Shown in pieces: positions 25,909 to 63,026 of a DNA stretch of 64,000 bases. Location: the NCBI GenBank assembly GCA_002269645.1, contig NIVC01001668.1, forward strand, positions 1 to 64,000, in the 5' to 3' direction. Made by a program: the position numbers and the translations under genes. Positions within the stretch are counted from its first letter, which is position 1. Each line of letters opens with the position of its first letter. A model generated the notes under the pieces. That model saw nothing but the letters and a program-made list of their open reading frames with translations, was not told the origin of the DNA and did no database searches. The stretch comes from Macrostomum lignano. Taxonomy: Eukaryota.

Positions 25909-26359
25909 CACACTAGAATAACTTGATGGGCCAGTCAGCACATTTGCGTGTAAGCTACTTTCAGTTCAGTAGTAGGTTAGATAGGAGCATTTTAATGTAT
26001 TTTTAAAGCCAAGGCTTCAAGCTTTAATTTATTGGCTCTTAACCCCCCCCAGCTTATACCCTCCAACCGCGCCTTTCCAAACTACTCCCCGCCCGGCCCC
26101 AATTTTTATTGGCTTTCTCGGAATTCCAGCCTAAAGCTGCCATGTACATTTCAGTGAACTGGCTAATGTACATTATTGCTGAACCAATTAGCAAGTTGTT
26201 TACGCCTGCAAGCTTGGGCATCTAAACTTATCAAAGCCATTTCAGCTGCCTTTATTTTTATAAAATAGCTTGCATATTCTTCTTTGCTACTGAAAGTAGA
26301 AAGCTGTTTTACTAAGTATACATGCCTGAGTGGCCCATCTAGTTATTTTAGTATCTGTG
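25909..26359. mobile_element. P-like/hAT-like MITE, copy 2 (uninterrupted, opposite orientation to copy 1)
   Basis: CACA...TGTG termini; 8-bp TSD gttgaacc (25901-25908 and 26360-26367). Confidence 0.85.
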
Positions 26360-26844
26360 GTTGAACCTGAAGCTATTATGTCTATTAATTTAGCACCTGT
26401 ACTTTCTAGTCCAGAATTAGTGATCTGGTTGGCCTTGACTTGACTTGAGATATTCAAGTTGGTTTTTTATCTATTATCGTTTTAATAAACGATATTTTGA
26501 GCATCAACTATTGCAGTTTCAAATTTGAGCAGTGCTTAAGTCTGCTTAGAGCATAGTTTTTCTACTTAAGTTCTCGTAAATAATTGCATATTTTAGGTTT
26601 CTAAAAATATGTTTTCTGTTTTCTCCTGGGTCCAATTAACGACCGTTGCATATGCAATTATTTTATCAATTTTTGTTATCTTGGTGCACAGTATTGCACA
26701 CTAATTATGCGCAATCTTTTTTCTTTGGTAGGTTATATACATTATTTACTGCTTGTTGAATGTTGAGAATAATATAATATTTTTATTTCGCGCCCAAAAG
26801 TTTATCACTTTGGCTTACTAGTGCAGTTGCCTAAATCTCCCCAC

Positions 26845-27325
26845 CCCATCCGCAAATGTCTCCATCCCGAATCTCCCCATCCCAAAATCTCCCCATCCCA
26901 AATCTCCCATCGTAAATCTCTCCTCATCCACAAATCTCCCCACCCCAAAAATCCCTATCCCCAAATCTCCCCATCCCCAAATCTCCCCATCCCAAATCTC
27001 CCCTTCCATCCCCAAATCTCCCCATTCCCGAATCTCCCCATTCCCGAATCTCCCCATTCCCGAATCTCCCCATCTCAAATCTCCCCTGCCAAATCTCCCC
27101 ATCCACAAATCTTCCCATCCCAAATATCCCTGCCAAATCTCCCCATCCACAAATCTTCTCATCCACAAATCTCCCCATCCCAAATCTCCCCATCCCAAAT
27201 CTCCCCATCCCAAATCTCCCCATCCCAAATCTCCCCATTCCAAATCTCCCCATCCTAAATCTCTCCTCATCCACAAATCTCCTCATCCCCAAATCTCCCC
27301 ATTCCCAAATCTCCCCTGCCAAATC
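26845..27325. repeat. Minisatellite, 15-bp unit (ccccatcccaaatct)
   Basis: Tandem array just left of the Polinton end. Confidence 0.9.
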
Positions 27326-27365
27326 TGAAGTTCTTTGCCATTTTGGCGCAGAAATTGAAAACGGT

Positions 27366-28948
27366 AGTAGTATTATTAAATTACACGCACCCCACATTTT
27401 TACATGTAAAAATGAATATAGTCCCCACCTACACTCGAACTGTAATACGCCTCCGTCAGTTCGAGCTAACGAACGAAACGCAACTCGCCCAAGCCGGCGT
27501 TCGATAAGGTACAAATCTTAGCTTTCTTATCTTAATACGACACACTAACCAACACTAGCGTTCTCCCAAAAGAAATATTGAATTCAAAGTCCAATTCTTC
27601 CTTAGCCTTGGCCATTTATTTCTGCAAAGTATATTTGACTGAATTCGCCGCAAGTCCATACGCATTAAAAACGAGTAAGCAAATTACCGCAATCTAATAC
27701 GCAGATAGTTCATCGCGAAAGAACGCAAACGATTATAACAGCGCTTAAACAGATTCTCGGCGCCACCACCACTAATCATGCTCGCTAGAAAATCCTTCAA
27801 ACCACCACCACGATGCAGTTTAAAGTATAAATAAAACAAAACCCATATACCACAGTGCAGACTTGTTGGTTCTTGAATAGCAAAACGCGAATATTCCCAA
27901 TTTCCCCCTCCACAATTCCGTATAAACCACCGACGTATTAACTCACATGGATTTAACCCCAAGGAATCGAAATACTCTCCCTTCCTAGAGCCCCTCCTAC
28001 CCAACCTAAAACCCCCCACCCATAACAAAACCCAATGAGAACCCGGCAAATTTGAAGTATCGGTATTCACGATCAGAAAATAATGCCTTCTGTCTCTCGG
28101 GATTCGCGGGATACTACTCAACAAATCGACAGGAAAAATACCCAAAAAACAAACGTCTTTAAAACCGTTACATAGAATAATCACAACACGTTGCAAGAAC
28201 AAGTTCGTTACACCTTCGCCTCGCCTCATTTCCAAGCGGTTCCTGGCACAACGTCCCGCAGTTCGGTAATCTGTAGTTGCTTGTCGAAAACACCACCGAA
28301 AATAACGTTATAGACCTCCGCTGTAGCCGTTCCAAAACGCATCTCCAGTCGGACATTCCCTTCCTTATATAATTGTACCGCCGGCGCAACTCCCCCGTCA
28401 GATCCTAACGAATACGCGAGTATCGTATACCCTCCGTTGTAGTCCGCCATCGAGAACCCCAAATCCCGTCCTTGTAAATACAAACCCAGTTGTTGACGCA
28501 GAGTTGTATACTCCTTTGCACAATCCCCTGTGAAGTCGAATTGACTAGGCCGTGTCGGTACCGCCTCACCATTTACGTAAACTCCAACGCTGATCAAATT
28601 CGCATGCACGAAATTGAACGGATTTGTCGCCAGACTTCCATTAAATGCAGTATTTCCAACGACTACCACCAGCAAAAGACGTGGCACTCCGCTCGGAAAC
28701 AGATTTTCGTGCGTATGGCTTAACGACCCTTGCGGTATTGTGAACGTACCCAATGATAAACTGCGATGAGGGTACAAGGCATTATGGGTCTTCAAACCAT
28801 GTGCATGGGCTCCAATCACACTGGCAGATGGCTGAACATACCGCAAACGAAGCTCCGCACTCTGAATCTCAACCTCGTAATCCTTTAACACTGCCTCACC
28901 AATCTGTGCGGCACTTAACACGAATTTGCTCTTTGCCGGTAGTAACTT
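27366..28948. repeat. Left arm of the 1583-bp inverted repeat
   Basis: Reverse complement of 41384-42966; four substitutions found by eye (27419, 27467, 27842, 28370). Confidence 0.95.
27684..28235 (-). CDS. Adenain-like cysteine maturation protease
   Basis: NTD..GSHW, YFDSLG and IQ..SLHCG give the H-D-Q-C catalytic set. Confidence 0.95.
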   Translation of the reverse strand: MEMRRGEGVTNLFLQRVVIILCNGFKDVCFLGIFPVDLLSSIPRIPRDRRHYFLIVNTDTSNLPGSHWVLLWVGGFRLGRRGSRKGEYFDSLGLNPCELIRRWFIRNCGGGNWEYSRFAIQEPTSLHCGIWVLFYLYFKLHRGGGLKDFLASMISGGGAENLFKRCYNRLRSFAMNYLRIRLR

Positions 28949-29548
28949 TATCCGCAAAGGCGTCTTTGACAACAAATACCGTGGCTGACGAAATAGATCC
29001 AAAAACAAAGGCCCTGAAACCGTACAAGTTCTCCCACCCGCAATTAGTGCCTGTCGCTTCACTCGCCCAACGTTCGCGACGCCGGTGGCATTCATTTTTC
29101 CAGCAGTGTCCTTGTAAAATCCCCAGGCAGCCAATCCGCCGTCTTGTCCCAACCGACCATACTCCAAAAGCGTCAGAAGCATGGCCTTGTACGGATACAT
29201 GAAGCTCCCGCCTTCAACGACCGTATCTCCTATCCGCAATTGCACGTCTTCGAACAGCGTACTCACCACCATGTTATTCAGACAGACATAGTTTTTCGCA
29301 GCATCCACAGCCCCTCCACTCTCGTCTACTACTCGGATTCCAACAGTTAGAACTGTTTCTTGTAAGTCGACATACAAATCTCCAGCCGGTACAATCTCGA
29401 ACTCAATTGGCCCTCCTTGCGTAATCCCATGTTGAGGCTGTATATCCGTGTAGCGACTGTCCACAACACTGAATTGTACTGGTGGGCTGTCAAATAACGT
29501 CAACTCACTTTTCAATCCAGCGACGTCAGGCCCCAACAACTGATCCAT
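28226..29548 (-). CDS. Major capsid protein (double jelly-roll, hexon-like)
   Basis: 440 aa; KSELTLFDSPPVQ, GPIEF, VDLQET, LDLFRQPRYL and NPFNF motifs typical of Polinton MCP. Confidence 0.93.
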   Translation of the reverse strand: MDQLLGPDVAGLKSELTLFDSPPVQFSVVDSRYTDIQPQHGITQGGPIEFEIVPAGDLYVDLQETVLTVGIRVVDESGGAVDAAKNYVCLNNMVVSTLFEDVQLRIGDTVVEGGSFMYPYKAMLLTLLEYGRLGQDGGLAAWGFYKDTAGKMNATGVANVGRVKRQALIAGGRTCTVSGPLFLDLFRQPRYLLSKTPLRIKLLPAKSKFVLSAAQIGEAVLKDYEVEIQSAELRLRYVQPSASVIGAHAHGLKTHNALYPHRSLSLGTFTIPQGSLSHTHENLFPSGVPRLLLVVVVGNTAFNGSLATNPFNFVHANLISVGVYVNGEAVPTRPSQFDFTGDCAKEYTTLRQQLGLYLQGRDLGFSMADYNGGYTILAYSLGSDGGVAPAVQLYKEGNVRLEMRFGTATAEVYNVIFGGVFDKQLQITELRDVVPGTAWK

Positions 29549-29941
29549 CTACTTGCCAAACAAACTGAATAACTTTTTAGTCGTGGCGCTCGGCTTTTTC
29601 TTTTTACGTATGCGTCTAACTCGCCGACCACGTCCAACCTGTTTTTTTACCGCAGGTGTCTTTCTGCTTATACCCTTTTTCCTGACTCGTCGTCGCTTAA
29701 CCACAACTGGTCCATCAGTAGTCGTCAATCTACGTTTCTTACCCATTCCAATCGTCTTCTTCAGGAAGCTTAAACCGCCCTCTACTAAATCCTTCCGAGC
29801 TCTACGTAGCACGGGATATATCACTCTCTCTGTTAAATTCGTCAAATATCCGTATCCCTCGTACACAGGTATCGAACTCGACCCACCACCCGTCCGCGGC
29901 TGTGTACTAGGTCCCGAATAGAATGCAAAAACCGGATCCAT
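29549..29941 (-). CDS. Basic Arg/Lys-rich putative core (pVII-like) protein
   Basis: 130 aa; basic C-terminal half; QPRTGGG..PVYEGYG N-terminus; abuts the MCP start. Confidence 0.65.
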   Translation of the reverse strand: MDPVFAFYSGPSTQPRTGGGSSSIPVYEGYGYLTNLTERVIYPVLRRARKDLVEGGLSFLKKTIGMGKKRRLTTTDGPVVVKRRRVRKKGISRKTPAVKKQVGRGRRVRRIRKKKKPSATTKKLFSLFGK

Positions 29942-29970
29942 GAATGCCGAGCGAAACTATACGTCAAAAT

Positions 29971-31113
29971 CTACTTAAAGTGCTTTGCTAATACCCGTGC
30001 TGTCTCTTTATCTAGATCTGATTCAGCCAACCACTGACCTCTCGAGTCGGGCATTCCCTCCCACTTGACAAAATATCGCCTGCCCTTCTTCCCCATACGC
30101 TCAACACGCTCGACCCGATCAATTTTAACAACCTCCGCCTCAGGTTCAGCCACTAGAAGCAGTTCACCTTGGTTGAATCGACCCTCCAACACTGTCGAAT
30201 CGTCCTCGGGGTCTAACAGACCATAAGACGGTGGCTTCGTAGAATACACCCGATGAATTCGATACACCCTATTACTCCATGTCGTTGTGTAACCCTTCTC
30301 AAATTTTCCCTTTTGACGTGCAAGTCGTACCCAATCACCAACCTTAAAACGCGGAATAGGCCTCACATCGTCGCCATACAACTCCTCCCACACCATGCCC
30401 TGCAGATGGCCATCCGCACTCACATCAATGGGGCTACGACCATTTAAACTGCGGTGTGGAGAGTTATTCAACGCAAGCTCTAATTTTGGTAGAACATCAA
30501 ACCACCGGGCCAGATTTCGAGTCCGAAATAGTCGTAGTAATCGCTCCTTCACGGTGCGTATCAATCGCTCAGCCATGCTCGCTTTGTAGGTACTCTGACT
30601 TACGAAAAATCGTACGCCCTCACGCTTTAACATCGACTGAGTTTCTCGCCCAAGAAACTCTCGACCAGCATCGCCTTGTAAGTACAGCGGTTTAAACCCC
30701 GTGCGGAATATCTCATACAATACACGGCTCACCTCACTTGGCTTCTTCGTCTTCAAAGCTCTCAAGCGAGCCAACCTAGTGAAACAGTCGACTAATACGA
30801 GGATGTACCTGTAACCACGGTTTTCGTCCTGATATTGCGGTAAGTCTGCCAAATCAATCTGCATTTGAAATTTTGCAACGGGCGGTAGTTGTATTTTCGG
30901 AGTTTTGAACTTCCGATTCGACTTCTGGAACAGATGTATCTCCTTCGTCCTACGCACCCACTTGTCAACAACAGCCTTGGCTTTTTTTTGCGTTAACTCC
31001 GGATACCTCCGCCTCAAAACTCGTATAAATTGCTTCTTATTACCACTAAACGCAGTAGGGCGTTCCAAGTCGAAAAATGCCACGTCCAGAAACTTAAAAA
31101 AAATCGCTTCCAT
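29971..31113 (-). CDS. Retroviral-type (rve) integrase with C-terminal chromodomain
   Basis: QIDLAD / QGDAGREF / AERLIRT DDE triad; YFVKWEG..QW chromodomain. Confidence 0.95.
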   Translation of the reverse strand: MEAIFFKFLDVAFFDLERPTAFSGNKKQFIRVLRRRYPELTQKKAKAVVDKWVRRTKEIHLFQKSNRKFKTPKIQLPPVAKFQMQIDLADLPQYQDENRGYRYILVLVDCFTRLARLRALKTKKPSEVSRVLYEIFRTGFKPLYLQGDAGREFLGRETQSMLKREGVRFFVSQSTYKASMAERLIRTVKERLLRLFRTRNLARWFDVLPKLELALNNSPHRSLNGRSPIDVSADGHLQGMVWEELYGDDVRPIPRFKVGDWVRLARQKGKFEKGYTTTWSNRVYRIHRVYSTKPPSYGLLDPEDDSTVLEGRFNQGELLLVAEPEAEVVKIDRVERVERMGKKGRRYFVKWEGMPDSRGQWLAESDLDKETARVLAKHFK

Positions 31114-31140
31114 CCTCCGTATTAGCGGCTCTCCAAATTT

Positions 31141-31314
31141 TTATGATGCAGAACCCACATTAGTATTGCAACAGTTAAAACTTGCCTTTACCGTTACGTC
31201 TCCGTCAGGCTCCTCTGCGCGCAGTACGCGTTCCAATAAATTCGCAATGCAACCACCCTCCCCCAAAAAACAAATTCTAAAACGCTTGTACAACCACTGA
31301 AACACATTCGCCAT
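31141..31314 (-). CDS. Small 57-aa ORF (MANVFQWLYKRFRICFLG...NCCNTNVGSAS), unknown function
   Basis: ATG-to-TAA ORF filling the gap between neighbouring co-oriented genes; below the ORF-track cutoff. Confidence 0.45.
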   Translation of the reverse strand: MANVFQWLYKRFRICFLGEGGCIANLLERVLRAEEPDGDVTVKASFNCCNTNVGSAS

Positions 31315-31357
31315 CCCCAGACTCGATATATTTCACGTAAAATACAATGCTTATACA

Positions 31358-32029
31358 TTACGCTAGAGTCTCATAATCTTCCAAGGCTTGCAAGTCCCCA
31401 CCGCGCGACTCTGACTCGGGAGTAGGTTCCATGGGTGTTCCTTCCTCCAGAACGTTTCGCATATGCCGCCCTAGCATCGACGGTGGAATTGATTCCCTGC
31501 GAAGCAGTGAGACGAAACGTTCCAGCTCTGCCGCCGGAGGCGATCTCCCTCGTTTCAATGGTTGGTCGCGAGTGACATACTCTACTAGCTCGTCAAAATC
31601 TCCTCCTCCAATCTCATTCGCAGCACCTGTCAGCCTTGCCTTCAGACGGTCGAAACGTGGTTGTACATTACGGGGGAGTCGCCTCCCCTTCTCGGTCTCA
31701 CCCTCCGTCGGGCCATCATGACCAACGGATGAGCGAACCTCTGGCGGGGTCTCACCATTCTTATTGTACAGAGACCGCGTTTGTAGCAACCGACTCTCCA
31801 AATCAGTTCTTTCCAACTGTGCGGTTGTAGGCTGCAGACTAGTCGATTCACCAATCTCCCGGTCAAGCCTATTCATCTCACCTTGCATTTCAACAATATT
31901 CTTACCCAAAGCGTCCACAGGTCCGTCCAATACTCCCGTCCTTCGCTCATCTTTCGCCGTACATTCCAAATAAGCCTGCAACGGCAGCAAAACCATTCGC
32001 TGAAGAGTTCCTCCTCTATTGACTGGCAT
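31358..32029 (-). CDS. Hypothetical Polinton protein (223 aa, coiled-coil N-terminal half)
   Basis: Co-oriented, tightly packed ORF with ATG; no motif recognised. Confidence 0.75.
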   Translation of the reverse strand: MPVNRGGTLQRMVLLPLQAYLECTAKDERRTGVLDGPVDALGKNIVEMQGEMNRLDREIGESTSLQPTTAQLERTDLESRLLQTRSLYNKNGETPPEVRSSVGHDGPTEGETEKGRRLPRNVQPRFDRLKARLTGAANEIGGGDFDELVEYVTRDQPLKRGRSPPAAELERFVSLLRRESIPPSMLGRHMRNVLEEGTPMEPTPESESRGGDLQALEDYETLA

Positions 32030-32030
32030 A

Positions 32031-32468
32031 TTACCTACGCCGTCCGGCCCGAATTGCTCGAACTAGATTTGCCGTCCCCGCAGCCGTACCGGCCAATCCC
32101 GATGTAATCCCTAGAGCCGTGCCAATGGCTGGCAAAGCAGAAATTATCGGAGCAAGAAACGGCAGGAAACCACCACGCTGTACCAAAATTTCCTTCCTGG
32201 CTCTAGTTGATTTTTTCTCCTTCAACAATTCTTGTATCGGTTTCCGATAGCGTTCTAAACGTTTCTTGTCACACGACTTTAACGGCACGCGTCCTTTTAC
32301 GATATTCAAAAGAAACTCAACCAGGCAACGCACCTCGCCCGGACTTAAACTTCGCAGAAATCGCTTGCGCTGGTCCAATCCCCGAAGCCTCGCGACAACT
32401 TGCAATAGGAAGGCACACTGGGACAATGATCGCGCGCTTTGTACGCTCTTTTCTGTCAGCCCGGTCAT
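32031..32468 (-). CDS. Putative virion protein with an adenovirus pX/Mu-like hydrophobic C-terminus
   Basis: QRGG-FLPFLAPIISALPAIG resembles the adenovirus pX segment MRGG-ILPLLIPLIAAAIG. Confidence 0.65.
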   Translation of the reverse strand: MTGLTEKSVQSARSLSQCAFLLQVVARLRGLDQRKRFLRSLSPGEVRCLVEFLLNIVKGRVPLKSCDKKRLERYRKPIQELLKEKKSTRARKEILVQRGGFLPFLAPIISALPAIGTALGITSGLAGTAAGTANLVRAIRAGRRR

Positions 32469-32512
32469 TGTCTATCATGCCTTCTACTGATTCCGACTGT
32501 ACTTGCTTATAA

Positions 32513-33469
32513 TCAATCGTCTCGTACCCTGAAGTGCAGCACAGCAATCACATGGCTTCCATCAGGGAAATTCAAATCTTGCCCCCGTTGGTCGGCCAGA
32601 CGAATGGAGATCTCATTAATGTAGCTCCGATTTGTCCGCAAGTAATATGGCGTCTGCAAAGCATTTCCGTCTCGTCGAAATATTCCGTTCTTTTCCTGGC
32701 GAAACTCAACCACGCGAAGTAGCGGAACCTGACGACTTCCAACCATTTGATATTCAACAATGTCGCTATAGCAGTACATGTAAACACTCCGCAGTATCGC
32801 TTCGGGTATTCTATCCAAATAGACCTTCGTCAGACCCCACGCACGATTTTTCCTCCAATACTCAACCACCTCCTTTAACGTATCCCCGGCAGGCCGTATT
32901 ACCTGCGTACTCTTCATCCAGACGGCGAAACCAGGTTCCAAGACAGCACGAAAATCGTACCAATTCGAATCTAATATACCTGCCTCGTCCATTGCATTCG
33001 TTATGTTCGTCCAGGATTCACCCGCCGCATCCGCGGGTTGGGTGCGTCCGTCGTGAGCTGTCAAACCCCACGTACTGAAACCAAAGCATGTCAAAAAACT
33101 CCTTGGCAGTTCAATGCCCATACGTCGGCTGCCGGAATTTCGCAAATACCAAACATATGCTTTAGTAGCCGGCGTCCACGACAAGTGTACCTCCAAATCA
33201 TCGGCCTGCCAGACCTTACCCAAGAAGACTTCATCTGTTTTCTCGATAATTTTCTCGATGTTGCAATAATATATCACCTTCACCTCTTCTCGAAGTTCCG
33301 CCGAGGAAGTTTCCGCCGGCGGGCTGTTACATAGCAAATCCACCAAAGCCACTTCATACTTCCCAGCCGGCGCTAGATTCAATGGTGTAGTTAGCCGCAC
33401 CCGAAACTCGTGCGCAGAATTGGTCGGATAACTACGATCGTTTGACGGAATAAACACAAAGAAACTCAT
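32513..33469 (-). CDS. Minor capsid protein (penton-like)
   Basis: PSN...N....FRVRL..PL.L...YEVAL N-terminus; YCYSDIV..Q.VG...VPLLRVV and I.IRL.DQ.G C-terminus. Confidence 0.88.
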   Translation of the reverse strand: MSFFVFIPSNDRSYPTNSAHEFRVRLTTPLNLAPAGKYEVALVDLLCNSPPAETSSAELREEVKVIYYCNIEKIIEKTDEVFLGKVWQADDLEVHLSWTPATKAYVWYLRNSGSRRMGIELPRSFLTCFGFSTWGLTAHDGRTQPADAAGESWTNITNAMDEAGILDSNWYDFRAVLEPGFAVWMKSTQVIRPAGDTLKEVVEYWRKNRAWGLTKVYLDRIPEAILRSVYMYCYSDIVEYQMVGSRQVPLLRVVEFRQEKNGIFRRDGNALQTPYYLRTNRSYINEISIRLADQRGQDLNFPDGSHVIAVLHFRVRDD

Positions 33470-33499
33470 AATCTCACCCCATAAGCTGTAGCCGCTTCC

Positions 33500-34213
33500 T
33501 CAAAACTTGCTTATAATATCCTCCTCCTTGATAGTCTCCGGACGCATATAAACAACCTGGTGAGTGTCACTCGGAAAGACATTCGTCCGTATGCGTATCA
33601 TATCCGGCGTGTCCTGTCGTAAGTCTATGAAGAGATAGCTGAAGGCCTTGTCACCCGTCGCGTCGTCATAAGCCTGCACCAGAAATCTACTAGCTCGGGG
33701 GTACATCTGCCGACCCAAATGTTCAACGGCGCTACGATCCCTAACATTTCGGCTTAAACAGATATAACTCGTCGATAAACTTCTTTTTCTTGCCTCAGGA
33801 TCCGCAGGGTCAAACAAATTTTGGCACAAATAAAGACAAGTCAATGGCGTATGATGAGCCAATTTGGTGAATACAGCGGTAAAAGCGCGTTGCTTTGCAA
33901 CTTCACCCTGCAAATCATCAACAACGACTAAATCGTGCGGCTTGAATCTAGCCAACAACTGATCGGGGAATCCCTGTACGAAGTGACATTCGCCACTTCC
34001 ACCCAATGTCCAACATTCTCGAACTCGTTTTTCCTCAGACGAATGTAACTCTGTACCGTGACACCAAATTAGACGCCTTGGTACTACTCGAAACAGACCC
34101 AAGCGCTCCCTTACCAGTCGAAGCACCCATTCAGTCTTTCCCGAATTCGAAGGACCTGCGACGATAAACGTCGAGTCATGAGCAAATCGCAAGTCGAATG
34201 TACGCCTGTCCAT
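33500..34213 (-). CDS. FtsK/A32-like packaging ATPase
   Basis: Walker A GPSNSGKT, Walker B VVVDD, LCQNLF and Q.YP motifs; first ATG at 34213. Confidence 0.93.
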   Translation of the reverse strand: MDRRTFDLRFAHDSTFIVAGPSNSGKTEWVLRLVRERLGLFRVVPRRLIWCHGTELHSSEEKRVRECWTLGGSGECHFVQGFPDQLLARFKPHDLVVVDDLQGEVAKQRAFTAVFTKLAHHTPLTCLYLCQNLFDPADPEARKRSLSTSYICLSRNVRDRSAVEHLGRQMYPRASRFLVQAYDDATGDKAFSYLFIDLRQDTPDMIRIRTNVFPSDTHQVVYMRPETIKEEDIISKF

Positions 34214-34214
34214 T

Positions 34215-34670
34215 CTAGGCACCCAAACGCTGTTTTACGTTCATAACACGGGATACCAGTTTTGCGGCCAAACGTTCCCCCCACTTAGTTGTAGGATCCG
34301 CAGCAATCTCTCGAGCTCCTGCTTCGAGTTGTTGATCGGCCTTTGAACGCTCTGCCACGTCCGAGTGCTTCTCGTATGCCAGGTCGTGTAAGAGACACAA
34401 TTTATCGAGCCGATTCTTCCCAGTATCGCCCCGCGCTAAACGTTCTCTCAATCTGGTCCCGGGGCCGCAGAATTGGTAACCCCCCGGCAAATGAAGCTCC
34501 CCTGGGAGATGATTTATTACCCAATTAACAATACCAAACCCCGTCTGACCTCGACGACGAGATTTCTTAGCTCGAGTCGACTTTGCTGCTGTCGAACGCA
34601 CTCGCTTCTTCTTCTTCTGTCGGCCTTGTGTTCCCATCCCACTTAATTGTACCAAAAGAACCAATTGCAT
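34215..34670 (-). CDS. Parvovirus-type phospholipase A2 domain protein (PLA2X)
   Basis: YQFCGPG Ca-binding loop, LDKLCLLHDLAY (HD), downstream AD; basic N-terminus; first ATG at 34670. Confidence 0.9.
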   Translation of the reverse strand: MQLVLLVQLSGMGTQGRQKKKKRVRSTAAKSTRAKKSRRRGQTGFGIVNWVINHLPGELHLPGGYQFCGPGTRLRERLARGDTGKNRLDKLCLLHDLAYEKHSDVAERSKADQQLEAGAREIAADPTTKWGERLAAKLVSRVMNVKQRLGA

Positions 34671-34783
34671 TTGCTTATACACACAGTGGTTAAATCCACG
34701 AGCAGTATATTGTATTAATAATCAAAGTGACAAGCCGCCACCAATTCCCACCACCGACCGACGGGCTCCGGGCGTGACCAGCA

Positions 34784-35401
34784 TCACATGTTAGTGCTGC
34801 CCATGCCACCCGTCTCGCGAACCGCCACCGGCTCCGGTTGTCGGTGCCACACCCCCGGCAGCTGGCCCTCGCGAGCTCGACCGACTTCTACCGGGGGCGT
34901 GACGCAGCGCTCCAGAATCAATTGGGCCACGCTGGTGGCACACGACAGATGAACTTTCTCATCTGACGTGTTGTGCAGGATCACGCGGAGTTCCCCGGTA
35001 TAGTCCGGGTCAACCACGCCACCCTGCACATTTAGGCCTCGGTTGGCCCAACTGGACCGGCTCGCTATCCGACCATAGGTGCCCGGCGGCAGCATCACCC
35101 GGAGGCCGGTGCGAATGATGGCCGTGTCAAAGGCTTCCACAGTGCGGTCTTCGCACGTGGCTAGGTCGTAGCCCACCGACCCGGCCGTAGCTCGCCGAGG
35201 CATCACTGCCCCGGCATCCGTGAGCACTACGCGCAGCGGGACCGTCGAGCAAGAGTCGGAGCTCATAGTGGCTGCGGGATCATAGTTCATCTTATGCTTA
35301 GGAGGTTCTTCGTCCTCTAAAATAAGTCTAGTACTACCCGCGTAATCCTCGTCCCAATCAAAAAAACTAAGCCTAGTACTAATCCCCTGCACTGCCATCA
35401 T
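34784..35401 (-). CDS. dut: dUTPase with acidic N-terminal extension
   Basis: Five motifs: VGYDL, GRIASRSS, GVVDPDYTGE, VAQLI and RETGGMGST; ATG 4 nt after a strong polypyrimidine-AG. Confidence 0.92.
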   Translation of the reverse strand: MMAVQGISTRLSFFDWDEDYAGSTRLILEDEEPPKHKMNYDPAATMSSDSCSTVPLRVVLTDAGAVMPRRATAGSVGYDLATCEDRTVEAFDTAIIRTGLRVMLPPGTYGRIASRSSWANRGLNVQGGVVDPDYTGELRVILHNTSDEKVHLSCATSVAQLILERCVTPPVEVGRAREGQLPGVWHRQPEPVAVRETGGMGSTNM

Positions 35402-35526
35402 AGGCCTAGAAAAACGAAGAGAAAGAAGGAAAGGCGGATTCTTGCATATACATTCGATAATTGCGCGCATATATTGTGTGCAGAAAAAGCATAAACAGAC
35501 AGAAAACAGAGAGCGGAGAGAACAAG

Positions 35527-38500
35527 TCAAGTCAACCGCCAATGACCAAATGGGAGGGATGAGTAGGGATCGAGCCAGGCTCGCTTCGTGTCGAAGAAGC
35601 TAAGCGCCTGCTTGCGCTGCTCAAGAAGATAAATCTTCTGTCGTCGCGAAGTAATCGTCCGCATCGTTACATGCTCCAAAACTCGATCCTTCAACACACT
35701 CAAAAATACATTGTGCTTCATACCTCTTACAATCGACTTCGACACGCCCTTGCAACGCACAATCTGACAGAGGCTTTCCTTTGCATACACCATTGAATAG
35801 TTTTTCGGGCGTAGAAATGCAAACTCCAACAGTGTACAACCGGAAACTTCATCTTTCCAGGCCATTAACTTCCCTTTATACTTTGTTGTATAAAGCGGAT
35901 GAGAAGGTGGATAATTACTAGTGTCTAACACACCGCACTCCACCAAGTCTTTAAACAATGTCTCCTGAGGACTCGTCTCCGGGTCGGCCATAACCAATGC
36001 CAGGATCAAACTATCCGTATCTCCACCAAGCACGCGGGCAGAAGCAAGCGACCTATGGCATTGAATCCTTGAATAGAAAAACTCGTAGACAAATGTTTTC
36101 GCAAGGTCCAGAATAGCGCTACCAATCAGAATTGGCTTGTTTAGCAATACTCGACGAGGAGTCAAACTCACGCCCGCTAGACGATCTGTATACAGAATCA
36201 CGTCCATAAACTCCTCTTTAGCGACATACGTTTCCAACTTCTCGGCAGTAGTACACATGCGATAGCTGAGTCGGTCTCGAACTCGCTGCAGAAACTTGCC
36301 GTACACAGCATTGTTCAATAGTTTAAAGAAATCTCGATCGAAATCGCTAGTCGCCTCAGACCGCCGACGAATATTATGTTCAATATATTCCTGTAGAATA
36401 GGACCTTCTACGAATTCGAGAACACGATTAACCCGCGTCACGCGCATGCCTAACTCGAGGTAAAGACGCAATGCTCGATGATGTACAATGTACCCTGTTT
36501 TATGCGTAACAGAGCCAATTAGTTTCCTTGTCGGAGAAGTGAATCGTTTTACGTCCTCGTATACCTCCGCATTCCTCTTCCTGGGATCAAGCTGGCGTTG
36601 CAGACAAACCCAATCCTGCTTCATATGCTCGGTTAAATAGGCACTATCAATTCTTTCATGGCCAATAGCCAGAGGTAGATCGGCAGTTGAGTCGTGCAAA
36701 AACTTTGGGTAGTAAAGATCGACATTCAATAACGCCCCTCGTCCATTCGAGCAATAGCTAGACAACCAAGCCAAAAACTTGCTCGACTTGTTCGGATTTT
36801 CCAACTCAGCTGCCTCATCATCAACTGATAGATTTTCAATCACTTCACGGGGCAACCAACGATAGGCCTTATACGGCAGCGCCTGCACCATACAACTGGC
36901 ATAAAGAGAATTAGCATCAAGGTAGGCCAAGTGAGTGCCATACGGTGCATTCCGCCGTAGTTCTCTTAAATTGTCGTCGTCGTCATCCAGCTGCCGACGA
37001 CATTCTTCTACCATTGGATTATTTGCCGTAGTAAGATGGCGAGTGCCAAAACTGAACCCACCTCGAATCGAAGCTTCAACCTCGGAGTACATACGAGCGT
37101 CTGTAAACAACTCGATCGGCTTCTTCACCTTCAACAGACACGCAGCCAGACTATACATTGGCGATCCGAGAAAATGACACACATCCAAACCGTATTCTCG
37201 AATTGCAGTCCGACGAAAACTCTCAAATACGTCGCATAACAGTAGTACATCCAACAGTAAATACGCAGTCAGATAGTCACGCAAATTGGCACAATCAAAC
37301 TCTTGCCAACTCTGCTGAGCGCGTGTGTACTCCTCCTTAGAACACTCTTGCCGGGTCATTGCGTCGTAAAACAAATCTCGCGATGGCAGTTCAGTCACAC
37401 TGTCCAACTTCTCTTCAGAGTCCAAGTAACAATACGGAAACACTCCCTTCTGCTGCAGAGTAGACAGTTGGAGTTTAGGATAAACATTCAGCAAATCTCG
37501 ACAGTGTACCAATTGTTCCTGCGTCAAACGGTTTGCCAGACTAGCTAGACTTGTCGACAAGTACGCAAACGTGTCCTTGAAGCAGATTTCAAACCAAACA
37601 AAATTCTTCTTCTTCTGCTTTTGTTGCTGCGGCCGTTGACTGCCAACCAGCAGCGGTACCTTGAACTTTAATGAAAACGTCTTAAACCGTTCCCTAGACT
37701 CGGGAAGAACGTGCAGTTGAACGTCGTCTTCTCCACTAAACACATTGTACACCTCACGAACAATTATTTTACCGTCATATCCTCGAAGATTGTGCAGGTA
37801 GACGATAATTCGATAGCGCTGCAGGGCAAGTTTTCGATTGCACGACATGCAAGCCATTCCACGTGGAAGACCACTCAAATGACAATGATCCCAGACTTGA
37901 GACTCGTCAGCGGAAAACTCGCGACGACAGACGTAGCATCGATCTGTGCTAGGACGCTGACCTAGATACTTTCTAAGCATTGGTCTATAAGTCATCTTGC
38001 TAGTCGCATTAGTTACTTCGAATGCAAGCTCGCGCAGAGCCAAGAGAAACCTGCCAATACAATCTGTTGTGCCAGGCGTAGAATAAAACAACTTGCATGG
38101 AGTATTGTATCTGCTCAACAAATCCTCCCTCGTTACACTATCCAAATCCGGATCGACAACCAAACGAAAGGCCACACAAACGGGCACGTGAATTTGTAAA
38201 ACATGGCTGTTAGCCGTAGGCACTGGCAGGCCCTTGACGAGGCCCCCCGATGCCTTTTCAACAGGTACAAGTAGACTCTCAATATCAGCATAAACCAAAT
38301 ACAGCGGCGGCAGTCGAGTCTCGTAGGCTGAAAAAGACAAAAATGCTTTGCCCTCCTCTGGTAAAACCTCCTCCGTGACTGGCTTTGGCGTTCGAATGAA
38401 GCCGCCGCCGCCGCCGCCGCCTGGTTGCTCCTCCGTCGTCTGGCCACACACGTGTTCTTTCAAGATATAATCCCAAGACGTGGTGTGAATAAAGCTCGCC

Positions 38501-39975
38501 AGACATTCAGGACAATAGCGCCGGCGTTTAGCACGAGAACTCAACAGCCTATCCAGATTTAGCACCGCCATGTAGTGTCCATACTTGAATTCTGCGTAAG
38601 GTGGTATGAACAGACAATTGACTGGCGCAAGGTCACCAGTGGAACGACGAAAATTAAAAAACAGCACGGCAGTATTCGTGGCATGACTCCAGACAAACAC
38701 ACGCATCAGTCTAATTCGAGGGTTCAGCCGGCAAAACTTTCTGTAGCTCCCAATTGAGTGACGAGTCACTCCGGCGCGCGTAAATCGAAAGCTTTTCAGC
38801 CAAGGCCTGTAAGACGCCTTTCGCCTTTTACGGGCTTGCCCTTCGACCTGTGAGGAAAAGACGCTCGACACGACAGCATACATAAAACAATCATGCTGAT
38901 CTGCTCGGTGCGGGCGTAGAAACAAAACCGCTCCCGGCATACGACCAACAGCCAGTGGAACGCGGAATGGAACGGAACGGGTCGGAGCGGATTCTGTTGG
39001 ACCGCCGCCCGCCTGCGCGCCCGCCGCCGCCGCCGCCACGCCCGCCGCCACCACCACCGCCGCCCCGCCACCCGCTCCCCACACGTCCTGCTGCTGCTGC
39101 CGACGACTGCTAGTGTTCGACTGTAGTAGTAGATATTTTCGGCGGAATATGCACAGCATAACGTCGACCTTGACAACGCCGAGGAACTTCCAGTTACTAC
39201 CTCGGGACTGAAAGTTGTCTAATTTAGCTACCAGATCGTTTGTTGTCTCGCTGTACCATTGGTTGAAAACGTCCTCAGAGAGAAGAAGTACACGGCGGCC
39301 GGCGGCTGGAGCATTCGCATCGAAGGAGACCATAACGACTTTGGAATTGAAGAAGGGCGCGATTACTTCTACCTCTTCGTTGTGGGGGGATTCACCAGCA
39401 GCCGTGTCATTGGCGGGGGGATAACGGGTACGATACATTTTTACATTAAGATGTATACATGTACGGAGTAAACAGTCCGCAGATCCGAGAGAGTTAAAAA
39501 GACGAAAAACTGGAACTTGCAGTTGTGGAAGTAACTCGCTGGGTGGTTCGGTATCGCCATCGTCCTCGTCCAGCAGAGGCGTGAACGTCAGAAAGTTCGC
39601 CCGACCTCGGTGTGCGGACTCGGTATGTTGTACCGACCAGCCTGGTGGAGTGTCCTCTTCGATTAGCCGACGCACTGGTTCTCGAAGTAAAAGTTGGTCT
39701 GGTTGATAGCACGAGCCATTGTGCGAGTGCCCATGGAGGGCGGCTTGACTGTTGAATCTCTGCCGGCACACGGGGCATCTGATTTGTTTCGTCGTCGTCG
39801 TCGACGGCTGGAATGGTGTTGGCGATTGTTGGCGACGGGGTGGTTGTGATAATCGCCTAAATAGTTTGCTCGGTGGTAAAAATAAGGAAGGAATGCACAG
39901 CCTTAAGTTTGGTGGACAGTCCAAAAATGTCCTCCGCCGCGTGGTTAAACTGTATTTTACTTTGCAGAGATACAA
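35527..39975 (-). CDS. polB: Protein-primed family B DNA polymerase with N-terminal Zn finger, terminal-protein/vOTU region and endonuclease-VII insertion
   Basis: YADIES exonuclease motif, DHCH..G..RG..C..CN EndoVII, DANSLY, KLLNNAVYGK, GGDTDS, RPKNY; ORF starts at TTG and the first ATG is codon 180. Confidence 0.97.
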   Translation of the reverse strand: MYLCKVKYSLTTRRRTFLDCPPNLRLCIPSLFLPPSKLFRRLSQPPRRQQSPTPFQPSTTTTKQIRCPVCRQRFNSQAALHGHSHNGSCYQPDQLLLREPVRRLIEEDTPPGWSVQHTESAHRGRANFLTFTPLLDEDDGDTEPPSELLPQLQVPVFRLFNSLGSADCLLRTCIHLNVKMYRTRYPPANDTAAGESPHNEEVEVIAPFFNSKVVMVSFDANAPAAGRRVLLLSEDVFNQWYSETTNDLVAKLDNFQSRGSNWKFLGVVKVDVMLCIFRRKYLLLQSNTSSRRQQQQDVWGAGGGAAVVVAAGVAAAAAGAQAGGGPTESAPTRSVPFRVPLAVGRMPGAVLFLRPHRADQHDCFMYAVVSSVFSSQVEGQARKRRKASYRPWLKSFRFTRAGVTRHSIGSYRKFCRLNPRIRLMRVFVWSHATNTAVLFFNFRRSTGDLAPVNCLFIPPYAEFKYGHYMAVLNLDRLLSSRAKRRRYCPECLASFIHTTSWDYILKEHVCGQTTEEQPGGGGGGGFIRTPKPVTEEVLPEEGKAFLSFSAYETRLPPLYLVYADIESLLVPVEKASGGLVKGLPVPTANSHVLQIHVPVCVAFRLVVDPDLDSVTREDLLSRYNTPCKLFYSTPGTTDCIGRFLLALRELAFEVTNATSKMTYRPMLRKYLGQRPSTDRCYVCRREFSADESQVWDHCHLSGLPRGMACMSCNRKLALQRYRIIVYLHNLRGYDGKIIVREVYNVFSGEDDVQLHVLPESRERFKTFSLKFKVPLLVGSQRPQQQKQKKKNFVWFEICFKDTFAYLSTSLASLANRLTQEQLVHCRDLLNVYPKLQLSTLQQKGVFPYCYLDSEEKLDSVTELPSRDLFYDAMTRQECSKEEYTRAQQSWQEFDCANLRDYLTAYLLLDVLLLCDVFESFRRTAIREYGLDVCHFLGSPMYSLAACLLKVKKPIELFTDARMYSEVEASIRGGFSFGTRHLTTANNPMVEECRRQLDDDDDNLRELRRNAPYGTHLAYLDANSLYASCMVQALPYKAYRWLPREVIENLSVDDEAAELENPNKSSKFLAWLSSYCSNGRGALLNVDLYYPKFLHDSTADLPLAIGHERIDSAYLTEHMKQDWVCLQRQLDPRKRNAEVYEDVKRFTSPTRKLIGSVTHKTGYIVHHRALRLYLELGMRVTRVNRVLEFVEGPILQEYIEHNIRRRSEATSDFDRDFFKLLNNAVYGKFLQRVRDRLSYRMCTTAEKLETYVAKEEFMDVILYTDRLAGVSLTPRRVLLNKPILIGSAILDLAKTFVYEFFYSRIQCHRSLASARVLGGDTDSLILALVMADPETSPQETLFKDLVECGVLDTSNYPPSHPLYTTKYKGKLMAWKDEVSGCTLLEFAFLRPKNYSMVYAKESLCQIVRCKGVSKSIVRGMKHNVFLSVLKDRVLEHVTMRTITSRRQKIYLLEQRKQALSFFDTKRAWLDPYSSLPFGHWRLT

Positions 39976-40268
39976 TTATGTAGACAATTTGAATATTTAG
40001 GAATGAACAGCAGGCTAGTAAGTAGTAGGTCGTTGATGGTGGTTGAAAGAATAGAATCGTATAACTTAGTCAATGGTAGTGTTTTTAGGGGTCTGAATCA
40101 GTTCGAATGGATCATCATGATAAACAAAAATCGTTGGGTACGCATGGGAATTTTACCTTCAGGTAGTAATAGTGGTAGGTGGTGTTTTTTCAACTTGGTA
40201 GGGGCTCGGTTGAATTTAGGTGTTTATTACTACAGCAGAAAATCGTTGTTGTTAATATCAAGTGCATG

Positions 40269-41069
40269 TCAGAGCTCACGACGAATGATGCCGCCAACAA
40301 GATGGGCTAGATCGGTCGTAGATGTATCCGATCTGATTAGAATTTCGTGTACGTTCGAGTAGTCCTGGTAGTGTCGTGTAAACGCCTCGTCTAGCGATCG
40401 TAGATAGTCCAGGGAGATGCCAGTCTCCTCACCGCTGCGTCCGCGCTGCGCGATGCGTTGAATGGCCAACTCCGGGTCAATGCGCAGGTAAATAAGCGTC
40501 GTGTTCGCGCCGGTAAAGGGTACCCCAGTCGCTTCGAGGACGTCTAGTTGGCGCTGAGCAATCGCCCATTCGGTGTCAGACAGCGAGCCTTGACGGTGTA
40601 GTACGTCTTGGAATGCTCGAGCCGACCCGAGGCAGCGGTCGAGGATAACCACCTTGTTGTTGGATTGTTGGTTAACCTCATTCCGGACCTGGGTGGTAAC
40701 ACAAGATTGGCAAAAGTAGCTATACCGTGCGTGTCTTTCGACATTGGTTGTACATGCAGTAGGAGCTATACGAAAGGAATTGCTAGATACTATAGTACCA
40801 CTTACTTTGCTGTCTCTGTCGAGCAAGTCGTGGGAGACGTGCTGTTGGAATGCGACGGCCGGAAGCTCGCCTCGATAGAATGACTGAAGCAGATTTACCG
40901 AGTCCGGGAGGAGCGGGTGTCGCGCGTACTGGTGAACAGGCTCGGGACCGAAGACGGCTTTGTCGGCCCAACCCTCGAGGCGGGAGGTGAGAGCCAGTTC
41001 TCGAAGCAACGTCGACTTCCCGGCACCGATTACGCCCTCCAGGAGAAAAATGCGAGACTGGCTCGTCAT
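40269..41069 (-). CDS. Deoxynucleoside kinase (dNK family) with a probable intron at 40689-40805
   Basis: LEGVIGAGKST P-loop, PEPV, ILDRCLGS, IYLR..PE....RI..RGR..E lid, YL..L...F. Confidence 0.88.
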   Translation of the reverse strand: MTSQSRIFLLEGVIGAGKSTLLRELALTSRLEGWADKAVFGPEPVHQYARHPLLPDSVNLLQSFYRGELPAVAFQQHVSHDLLDRDSKVSGTIVSSNSFRIAPTACTTNVERHARYSYFCQSCVTTQVRNEVNQQSNNKVVILDRCLGSARAFQDVLHRQGSLSDTEWAIAQRQLDVLEATGVPFTGANTTLIYLRIDPELAIQRIAQRGRSGEETGISLDYLRSLDEAFTRHYQDYSNVHEILIRSDTSTTDLAHLVGGIIRREL

Positions 41070-41114
41070 ATTGGCTAGAATTGGAACAAATTCTGGTTTC
41101 GGAGCGGCTTCCTG

Positions 41115-41383
41115 ACACAATTGTTTAACAATGTTGATCATTTCTAAAATCTGGCTAGTAGTCTTTGCACCTATTATAACGATCTTAAGGGAAAGAAAAA
41201 TATTGCACACCGTCCTATTGAGTGGAGCAGTACTACGGAGGGTGATGGCTTGTGGGAATATCTCCGCGTCGTAATACAGCCGAGCTGTGTGAAACGGCCC
41301 GATAAATTTTTTCAGGGTCGAAAATTTGAGTCCAGGATAGTGGAGCAGACCAACGGTTGTAGAGCTGATTATACGAATCGATG
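41115..41383 (-). CDS. TATA-binding-protein-like repeat, 5'-truncated, in frame with the dNK
   Basis: YDAEIFPQAITLR...TVCNIFLSLKIVIIGAKT aligns by eye with TBP YEPELFPGLIYR...LLIFVSGKIVITGAK. Confidence 0.65.
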
Positions 41384-42106
41384 AAGTTACTACCGGCAAA
41401 GAGCAAATTCGTGTTAAGTGCCGCACAGATTGGTGAGGCAGTGTTAAAGGATTACGAGGTTGAGATTCAGAGTGCGGAGCTTCGTTTGCGGTATGTTCAG
41501 CCATCTGCCAGTGTGATTGGAGCCCATGCACATGGTTTGAAGACCCATAATGCCTTGTACCCTCATCGCAGTTTATCATTGGGTACGTTCACAATACCGC
41601 AAGGGTCGTTAAGCCATACGCACGAAAATCTGTTTCCGAGCGGAGTGCCACGTCTTTTGCTGGTGGTAGTCGTTGGAAATACTGCATTTAATGGAAGTCT
41701 GGCGACAAATCCGTTCAATTTCGTGCATGCGAATTTGATCAGCGTTGGAGTTTACGTAAATGGTGAGGCGGTACCGACACGGCCTAGTCAATTCGACTTC
41801 ACAGGGGATTGTGCAAAGGAGTATACAACTCTGCGTCAACAACTGGGTTTGTATTTACAAGGACGGGATTTGGGGTTCTCGATGGCGGACTACAACGGAG
41901 GGTATACGATACTCGCGTATTCGTTAGGATCTGACGGGGGAGTTGCGCCGGCGGTACAATTGTATAAGGAAGGGAATGTCCGACTGGAGATGCGTTTTGG
42001 AACGGCTACAGCGGAGGTCTATAACGTTATTTTCGGTGGTGTTTTCGACAAGCAACTACAGATTACCGAACTGCGGGACGTTGTGCCAGGAACCGCTTGG
42101 AAATGA
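41381..42106 (+). pseudogene. Duplicated C-terminal 241 aa of the major capsid protein
   Basis: Protein identical to the MCP C-terminal half; ATG formed at the repeat junction. Confidence 0.8.
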
Positions 42107-42966
42107 GGCGAGGCGAAGGTGTAACGAACTTGTTCTTGCAACGTGTTGTGATTATTCTATGTAACGGTTTTAAAGACGTTTGTTTTTTGGGTATTTTTCC
42201 TGTCGATTTGTTGAGTAGTATCCCGCGAATCCCGAGAGACAGAAGGCATTATTTTCTGATCGTGAATACCGATACTTCAAATTTGCCGGGTTCTCATTGG
42301 GTTTTGTTATGGGTGGGGGGTTTTAGGTTGGGTAGGAGGGGCTCTAGGAAGGGAGAGTATTTCGATTCCTTGGGGTTAAATCCATGTGAGTTAATACGTC
42401 GGTGGTTTATACGGAATTGTGGAGGGGGAAATTGGGAATATTCGCGTTTTGCTATTCAAGAACCAACAAGTCTGCACTGTGGTATATGGATTTTGTTTTA
42501 TTTATACTTTAAACTGCATCGTGGTGGTGGTTTGAAGGATTTTCTGGCGAGCATGATTAGTGGTGGTGGCGCCGAGAATCTGTTTAAGCGCTGTTATAAT
42601 CGTTTGCGTTCTTTCGCGATGAACTATCTGCGTATTAGATTGCGGTAATTTGCTTACTCGTTTTTAATGCGTATGGACTTGCGGCGAATTCAGTCAAATA
42701 TACTTTGCAGAAATAAATGGCCAAGGCTAAGGAAGAATTGGACTTTGAATTCAATATTTCTTTTGGGAGAACGCTAGTGTTGGTTAGTGTGTCGTATTAA
42801 GATAAGAAAGCTAAGATTTGTACCTTATCGAACGCCGGCTTGGGCGAGTTGCGTTTCGTTCGTTGGCTCGAACTGACGGAGGCGTATTACAGTTCGAGTG
42901 TAGGTGGGGACTGTATTCATTTTTACATGTAAAAATGTGGGGTGCGTGTAATTTAATAATACTACT
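41384..42966. repeat. Right arm of the 1583-bp inverted repeat
   Basis: Ends ...aataatACTACT; coordinates mirror the left arm exactly. Confidence 0.95.
42097..42648 (+). CDS. Second full copy of the adenain-like protease (one V/I difference)
   Basis: Identical to 27684-28235 except WVL vs WIL. Confidence 0.9.
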   Translation: MEMRRGEGVTNLFLQRVVIILCNGFKDVCFLGIFPVDLLSSIPRIPRDRRHYFLIVNTDTSNLPGSHWVLLWVGGFRLGRRGSRKGEYFDSLGLNPCELIRRWFIRNCGGGNWEYSRFAIQEPTSLHCGIWILFYLYFKLHRGGGLKDFLASMISGGGAENLFKRCYNRLRSFAMNYLRIRLR

Positions 42967-43879
42967 AGTGTCATATAACTTGAAAGCGACACTTATTATA
43001 ATCCTGCGTGCCATTAGTCTTGTGGCTGCAGCCAGGTCCGTGACTAGCTATCTATTAATGGCGTGAAGCATTCCCGGTGGCAGTGAAATTAGATATTGAA
43101 CAAATGGCCTCTGTCTATGCATAATCGCTACTGGCTTAGCTAAGGTATTGGATTTATGCTGGCTGTCAGGGCCTTCTGTCTGCTAACATGGGCGTGGTCC
43201 CTCAGTGAATTGGATTTTCTGCCCTGCCCTCCCCTTTTTCCATCCTCATCTGTCCCTGATTAGAAATCTTCCCCTTTGCAGCCTACATATCGGGTTTAGC
43301 GTTGCCTGCCCCATCATGCAGAGGATTTGTGGGATCTGCGAGAGCGCTGGTCAGTATTGGGCGGGGCGATGCTGGTACGACAGGGATTAGAGAGAGAGAG
43401 GGGGGTGAGGATCACAAATATACCTATATAGTCTATAAGATCAATCTACTTTAGAATTGGGGTTCTCATAGCGTTGAAATTTGCATTTTTATTTTAAAAA
43501 TACTATAGACGATAGGAGCTTATTATTATTTTTTTTTATAAAATTCCGCTATCTGCCTCGCTCCCGGCCCCTGAACTTGACTGACAGGCGATCCCTAATG
43601 CGCTCACTATTTTTAGTTCGCCGCTGCTCAACAGAGACACAAGACGACTTAAAAGGCAAACAGGGCAGAGGAGAGGAGAAGGCAAAGAAAAAAACTGACT
43701 GACTGTGTTGCAATCATTTGAGCACTTCTCTCTGGGCGCTCGTTCCGTCGACTGGTTGAATCTTCTCTCTGCAGCTTAATTATAGAGCTGCCACCGGCTG
43801 TTCCCTGGGGAGGCAGGCAGGGGCTACCGCTCAGCTCAGCTCACATCGTTTTTTTGAGTGCCGGTCCGTGTGAGCAGCC

Positions 43880-63026
<19,147 letters not shown>

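Follow-up and report, generated by a model that had tools for sequence, protein, structure and literature searches.

The 64,000-nt window analysed here (NCBI assembly GCA_002269645.1, contig NIVC01001668.1, positions 1 to 64,000) contains a Polinton/Maverick of the flatworm Macrostomum lignano, a virus-like element of what we call family A among six local families. Its deoxynucleoside kinase gene carries an ordinary spliceosomal intron, and its protein-primed DNA polymerase gene has no ATG for 123 conserved codons and likely starts on the in-frame AUG of the host spliced leader (SL). It is probable that this SL AUG is the polymerase initiator. We further regard it as likely that several flatworm Polinton lineages outsourced the start codon of the terminal-protein/DNA-polymerase to the host SL RNA, that replication there needs phylum-specific trans-splicing, and that the trait switched more than once. 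The intron is the less surprising of the two results. The polymerase result, if true, describes a virus-like element that takes the first codon of its replication protein from an RNA of the host.

The transcript evidence consists of assembled contigs from 8 of 24 listed sequencing runs, seven of them RNA-like (X1, X2, X3, X5, X7, X8 and X9) and one DNA-like (X17). Run types were judged from behaviour, none being recorded as RNA; poly(A) tails, SL sequence and spliced joints show the RNA content. A 24-nt loose end at the polymerase acceptor (39808) was identified in X2, and a 21-nt loose end at the dUTPase acceptor (35272) in X2 and X7, which belong to two studies. The M. lignano SL, as published, ends in AUG (PMC8629364), and both loose ends equal its 3' terminus; both joints follow CAG. 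The leader is not templated at 39808, as X17 reads through without a loose end and the eight genomic copies lack it. The dUTPase and polymerase transcripts are SL trans-spliced.

The acceptor at 39808 lies 369 nt above the first ATG of the polymerase (39438) and in frame with it, and the 179 codons preceding that ATG are free of stops and have no ATG among them. The extension joined in this way is in frame with the SL AUG, which would act as its initiator. To compare polymerase starts across the genome, 46 loci around 75 matches were examined and 41 were scored; L111 was mislocated, and L114, L115, L125 and L126 lack an intact first Cys pair. TTCCAG is found 30, 27 or 24 nt before the first Cys in family A (eight loci) and 12 nt before it in families B (two loci, plus L071), D (two) and F (two). 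The distance is a multiple of three throughout these four families, in frame with the SL AUG, and the conserved coding stretch has no genomic ATG of its own; no in-frame ATG lies upstream in A, B or F, and D has one at a distance. In families C (three loci) and E (24 loci) the polymerase has its own ATG at the fifth codon ahead of the Cys, a codon that reads CAG in B, D and F, and the alignment (A1) reads 'MP' in C and E versus '-P' in A, B, D and F. The extension is 41-50% identical to those of the five other families. Between B and D, the proportions of synonymous and non-synonymous differences over the ATG-less stretch are pS 0.75 and pN 0.20, and by this codon comparison the extension is under purifying selection. 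A 94-aa ORF (39494-39778) was also considered as the target of the SL site and rejected, having no counterpart in B-D and overlapping the extension in another frame.

C pairs with F at 83/89 in the unrooted polymerase tree, and not with E, which weakly suggests more than one switch between an own ATG and an acceptor. A near-length search for relatives of the polymerase N-terminus gave 0 matches, a search of shorter proteins gave one fused gene model, also from M. lignano and sharing the intron donor, and viral contigs gave one 18-residue kinase match and no polymerase relative. With so few outside relatives found, the trees have no close outgroup.

The extension encodes a C2H2-like finger, below the Pfam cut-off. 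The AlphaFold model of the polymerase N-terminus (six sequences, mean pLDDT 69) shows a sheet and two helices, with a Gly-Ser loop before the last strand that is conserved in 6/6 families, and this modelled domain fits the TP/D1 description in section 6 of PMC11161782. Its best fold matches are adintovirus and MELD polymerase proteins (E 1e-8 and 3e-5), and the look-alikes of the extension in the Atlas are only small zinc-finger clusters, with recognition below threshold. The extension is predicted to supply the zinc finger together with roughly one half of the terminal-protein domain, the primer of replication. Met124, the first genomic Met, falls inside the strand 112-128, and a start at the first genomic ATG is predicted to give a broken primer domain. 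Protein-primed replication would in this way depend on SL trans-splicing. The predicted beta-sheet, two helices, Gly-Ser loop before the last strand and N-terminal position are shared with the TP-vOTU-polymerase architecture of Polinton pPolB (PMC11161782), whereas here the C2H2 finger comes first and the first half of the domain has no genomic start codon in four families. Farther along in the polymerase ORF (35527-39438), residues 496-537 form an endonuclease VII-like (HNH) insert, of a kind also reported for nematode pPolB2 (PMC10748475).

Flatworm RNA shows that the 117-nt segment in the kinase gene is spliced out of the mRNA as an ordinary GT-AG intron. A joint skipping exactly 117 nt, with CT..AC ends, occurs in six of the seven RNA-like runs (X1, X2, X7, X3, X8 and X9; four studies). 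In X5, the seventh, the intron is likewise spliced out, here in a damaged copy type (weak, depth 3.3, 24-nt side), and X17, a DNA-like run whose type is not on record, reads through the intron without a joint. The top match of the kinase ORF, P0001 (NCBI PAA65279.1 and PAA84796.1, labelled Macrostomum lignano), equals the ORF minus exactly the 39 intron residues. Taken alone, the intron is of modest weight: it is a lineage-specific gain by a mobile element, and public annotation already implies it.

The intron starts with GTAAGT at 40805 and ends with CCACCCAG at 40689, is in phase 0, and has no stop in the kinase frame; its 3' end is a 72% pyrimidine tract followed by CAG. These ends agree with the host consensus of a GT[G/A]AG donor and a CAG acceptor (PMC8629364). 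GC content is 0.43 in the intron versus 0.60 and 0.55 in the exons, and at the three codon positions 0.39/0.59/0.31 versus 0.68/0.41/0.70 in exon 1. A stop-free intron arises in 14% of shuffles, and in about 5% after adding the 1-in-3 chance of a length divisible by three (3n); the stop-free state is unremarkable. From ATG 41069 the protein has 266 aa with the intron and 227 aa without it, the latter being the public protein. A preliminary description, made from the sequence alone, had placed a stop-free, AT-rich, phase-0 intron at exactly these coordinates, proposed its removal by the host spliceosome to give a 227-aa protein, and pointed to the junction 40805/40689; all of this is borne out, the host-type signals being read from sequence and the removal from transcripts. 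It had also expected the removal to restore the short spacing between the FQ helix and the (E/D)R motif, which agrees with the intronless relatives. It did not notice the SL trans-splicing or the polymerase's lack of a start codon.

The kinase ORF matches PF01712 at 88.2 bits (cut-off 27), and its P-loop, EP, FQ helix, (E/D)R and lid motifs align with solved deoxynucleoside kinases, including Drosophila dNK (1j90) and human dCK. The ERS motif of the dNK family reads DRC in the Polinton kinase, and activity is predicted from its sequence. The Polinton kinases form a clade separate from host kinases (support 100/100). A longer 436-aa ORF from ATG 41579 was discarded, as that ATG lies in a rearranged segment where the sister copies differ. 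A genome search with the kinase gave 12 matches, of which eight are full-length and belong to family A, and all eight have the intron, with a length of 117 nt in five and 116 nt in three. In the most diverged intact copy (L006), the intron differs at 9/117 sites and the exons at 14/684 (Fisher p=0.003), and the intron changes of two diverged copies, read in the kinase frame, are synonymous in 0/8 and 0/6 cases. Separately, partial kinase copies (L009/L059 on G000:C255, and L010-L012) match only from about the exon-2 boundary (residue 91-94) and have unrelated AT-rich sequence upstream.

Several observations weigh against an ordinary intron combined with an SL-donated start. The polymerase SL joint is the weakest link, as among the loose ends listed it is carried by one contig in one of the seven RNA-like runs, the RNA comparison covering family A, and contigs of X3 and X8 run through the acceptor site. 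Family A has four ACG codons right after the acceptor, a possible non-AUG start, and family D has one in-frame ATG 36 codons above the acceptor (40 before the Cys). The structural model is middling and a PDB fold search at E<=0.001 gave no match, so the terminal-protein call rests on topology. As for the kinase, its tree sets family A apart, as the sister of all others, with support of only 86/90, so the choice between gain and loss of the intron rests on distant outgroups, and the synonymous to non-synonymous exon changes, 4:10 in L006 and 4:5 in the other diverged copy, soften the intron-exon contrast.

The single-run joint and the near-cognate codons adjoining the acceptor would suit a translation start of the extension at a codon other than AUG, or in a cis exon lying unseen farther upstream, with the SL joint at 39808 as a minor side product, and three GT[A/G]AG donors do lie upstream, within the kinase gene. 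We nevertheless hold this to be unlikely: no cis joint into 39808 is present among the joints listed for the seven RNA-like runs, the acceptor of B, D and F sits at the exact codon of the ATG of C and E, and the acceptor of family A stays in frame through three length variants.

The preliminary description had also proposed that the stop-free 3n intron is alternatively retained and yields a functional second kinase isoform of 266 aa. The contigs drop minor forms, and retention is not measurable from them. X8 has intron-containing contigs beside spliced ones, X1 contigs break at the intron edge, five of the eight copies are 117 nt and stop-free, and the insertion falls in a loop whose length varies between solved kinases, all of which would accommodate such an isoform. 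Against it, contigs of X2, X3, X7 and X9 assemble straight across the spliced joint, and the retained contigs of X8, among those listed, carry variants of the frameshifting 116-nt copies. The 39-aa insert occurs in no relative among the kinases compared, where the preliminary description would have looked for it as conserved protein. Together with the three 116-nt copies, the lack of synonymous bias and the faster divergence of the intron, this makes a functional isoform quite unlikely; nothing indicates selection on a minor retained form.

Returning to the polymerase, the proposal that A, B, D and F have lost their true start, and now either begin a shortened protein at the first genomic ATG or are dead, can point to many damaged copies, with open frames of only 201-563 aa in seven of the eight family A copies. 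It is very unlikely, given that the ATG-less extension is conserved across families (about 46-50% identity) under purifying selection, that family A has near-identical dispersed copies, and that the first ATG stands at a different place in each family and, in A, in mid-strand in the model.

A single gain in family A, by insertion pure and simple, is the probable origin of the kinase intron; that the length is 3n is incidental. All ten kinase frames of families B, C, D and F, and all four host-type kinase frames, are intronless at the site, and the spliced kinase has about the same local length as these intronless homologues; no coding sequence is missing relative to them, so the intron is an insertion and not intronised coding sequence. 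A stop-free 3n length is typical of intronisation. An origin of the segment as an introner-type transposon, as a group I intron since decayed or by intronisation of coding sequence is extremely unlikely: introners do occur in Maverick-like elements of dinoflagellates (PMC11957031), but the eight genomic matches of the intron, a lower bound, share one homologous position, the intron is flanked by no repeat longer than GT and resembles none of the element stretches compared with it, Rfam gave no match in 26000-44000 at E<=0.1, including the group I core RF00028, and no coding sequence is missing.

Transcripts of the kinase, polymerase and dUTPase genes may undergo processing of the kind seen in host operons. 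Kinase contigs of X7 and X9 (one study) extend from the poly(A) site at 39908 to 41075, just after an AG, plus six extra letters; P0001 begins one codon ahead of the kinase Met, and families B, C and D have YAG 2-3 nt before the kinase ATG. YAG within 5 nt has a background of 13% and is met in several other family A genes, which makes the motif alone weak. From the combined observations, we infer an SL on the kinase mRNA at 41075. The kinase poly(A) site is 100 nt upstream of the polymerase acceptor, the same spacing as the approximately 100 bp between genes in host operons (PMC8629364). The kinase mRNA would be SL-capped, cis-spliced and polyadenylated, and the RNA downstream would then be capped by SL trans-splicing. 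For the kinase and dUTPase, the SL AUG would be out of frame and meet a stop after two codons, so that their own ATG would be used; the SL AUG of these two genes forms an 'AUGA' stop-start overlap, which the sister kinases do not share. X7 shows four poly(A) sites (27598, 31289, 34670 and 39908), by which the element is divided into blocks of transcripts. Exact copies of the 24-nt SL motif number 58 in the genome, and no GT donor follows the AUG in the six inspected (L043-L048), so that no SL RNA gene was located; these copies of the SL 3' end are perhaps retro-copied trans-spliced RNAs or a leader-carrying repeat.

Host genes of flatworms are known to initiate at the SL AUG (PMC9851317, PMC12582326), and in Schistosoma mansoni this AUG is in frame in 28% of trans-spliced transcripts (PMC9851317, citing Cheng et al. 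2006). Those host genes likewise combine an SL ending in AUG, an in-frame joint and a gene without its own ATG, while the recipient here is the replication polyprotein of a virus-like element whose sister families keep an ATG at the same position. The SL-resolved operons of M. lignano share the same end of the 35-nt SL, the [T/C]TNCAG motif and the gene spacing of about 100 nt; the text of PMC8629364, in the parts covered, makes no mention of viral or Polinton genes. Vertebrate Mavericks (PMC8097293) and nematode Mavericks (10.1101/2022.07.12.499685) share pPolB, integrase, terminal repeats and, by prediction, ATPase, protease and capsid with the present element. The former are reported as intron-free, and the latter have intronless core genes and intron-bearing cargo near the left end. 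Unlike that cargo, the Polinton kinase is present in five of the six families and is intronless except in A, which is not what a freshly captured, intron-bearing host gene would look like. The term 'splic' is absent from the available text of both papers, and the available parts of PMC8502044, PMC10748475 and PMC12220804 hold nothing on spliceosomal or trans-splicing in these elements. In a coverage outside which most subscription journals and supplements lie, we found no publication that deals with Polintons of Macrostomum or with an SL-donated start codon in any virus or transposon; repeat libraries or lists of trans-spliced genes in such supplements may already contain the present sites.

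An SL-donated start, if true, would offer a concrete molecular explanation of why elements stay faithful to a host although their group is known to jump horizontally, and the sister families with or without their own polymerase ATG offer a natural comparison in one genome. Since 85% of stem-cell-specific genes are trans-spliced (PMC8629364), the activity of the element may be linked to stem cells. Annotation based on ATG truncates these polymerases by about 120 residues, halving the predicted terminal-protein domain.

Features of the Polinton copy in the window, by position and strand.
Feature	Position	Strand	Remarks
Endogenous Polinton, family A	27366..41383	-	AGTAGT terminus at 27366
SL acceptor of dUTPase gene	35272..35273	-	ATG 35266, ORF end 34784, poly(A) 34670; PF00692
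Rest of protein-primed DNA polymerase ORF, from first genomic ATG	35527..39438	-	PF03175, 73.5 bits
Polymerase extension without ATG, 123 codons	39439..39807	-	C2H2 finger and first half of predicted terminal-protein domain
Polymerase trans-splice acceptor TTCCAG	39808..39813	-	host SL joined here, in frame
Poly(A) site of kinase mRNA	39908	-	21 untemplated T in X7 and X9; genome downstream not A-rich
Kinase coding exon 2, to stop codon	40269..40688	-	
GT-AG (U2-type) phase-0 intron, 117 nt	40689..40805	-	in kinase gene
Kinase coding exon 1	40806..41069	-	ATG at 41069, P-loop; PF01712
Candidate SL acceptor AG of kinase	41075..41076	-	5 nt before kinase ATG; inferred
Inverted second copy of the other end of the element	41380..42966	+	replaces normal left arm; counterpart 27366-28952

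The assignment to Polintons follows from the presence of both pPolB, whose PF03175 score is over the cut-off, and an RVE integrase (rve E 5e-7, slightly under the cut-off, with a chromodomain present too). The window copy has the family A gene set of kinase, pPolB, dUTPase, PLA2-like, putative ATPase, PX-like, integrase, putative capsid and putative protease genes, and the order kinase-pPolB-dUTPase-PLA2-ATPase is identical in the three sister families compared. The capsid gene has an Atlas score of 0.98 to clusters in which 24-30% carry PF21738, the packaging ATPase has a weak Pox_A32 match (E 0.023), and the protease was named by eye from motifs without a Pfam match; a PHROGs search added nothing for capsid or protease. 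Terminal inverted repeats (TIRs) with AGT ends are present, 64 bp long in two sister copies of 20.3 and 21.1 kb. None of three copies has a 6-bp target-site duplication matching its own flanks, and the 6-bp right flank of the window copy is the left flank of a copy on C297, which suggests swapped flanks.

About 5.7 kb of left arm, judged from the sister copies, is replaced in the window copy by the inverted repeat, which matches its counterpart over 1587 nt with six mismatches and holds the protease gene and half of the capsid gene. All seven sister copies part from the window sequence at 41383, and the inverted arm is likely an assembly mix-up (collapsed assembly) or the product of recombination between copies. 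Upstream of the kinase, the sister copies L049, L051 and L053 have a left arm of about 5 kb with a conserved 219-221-aa ORF and other short ORFs, and RNA contigs extend into this arm. Family E (L092-L110, e.g. G000:C340) is a high-copy Polinton family, with at least 22 loci of identical start context and its own polymerase ATG, and the one copy examined has no kinase match. At the other end of the element, one X1 contig (depth 4.7) skips 549 nt (28087-28635, minus strand) with GT..AG ends, from the capsid gene to the protease gene, a single weak case with a non-consensus donor. Host exons flank the element at 43880-45117 and 61060-62970, and an ORF downstream has PITM/LNS2 domains; the element may sit inside a host lipid-transfer gene.
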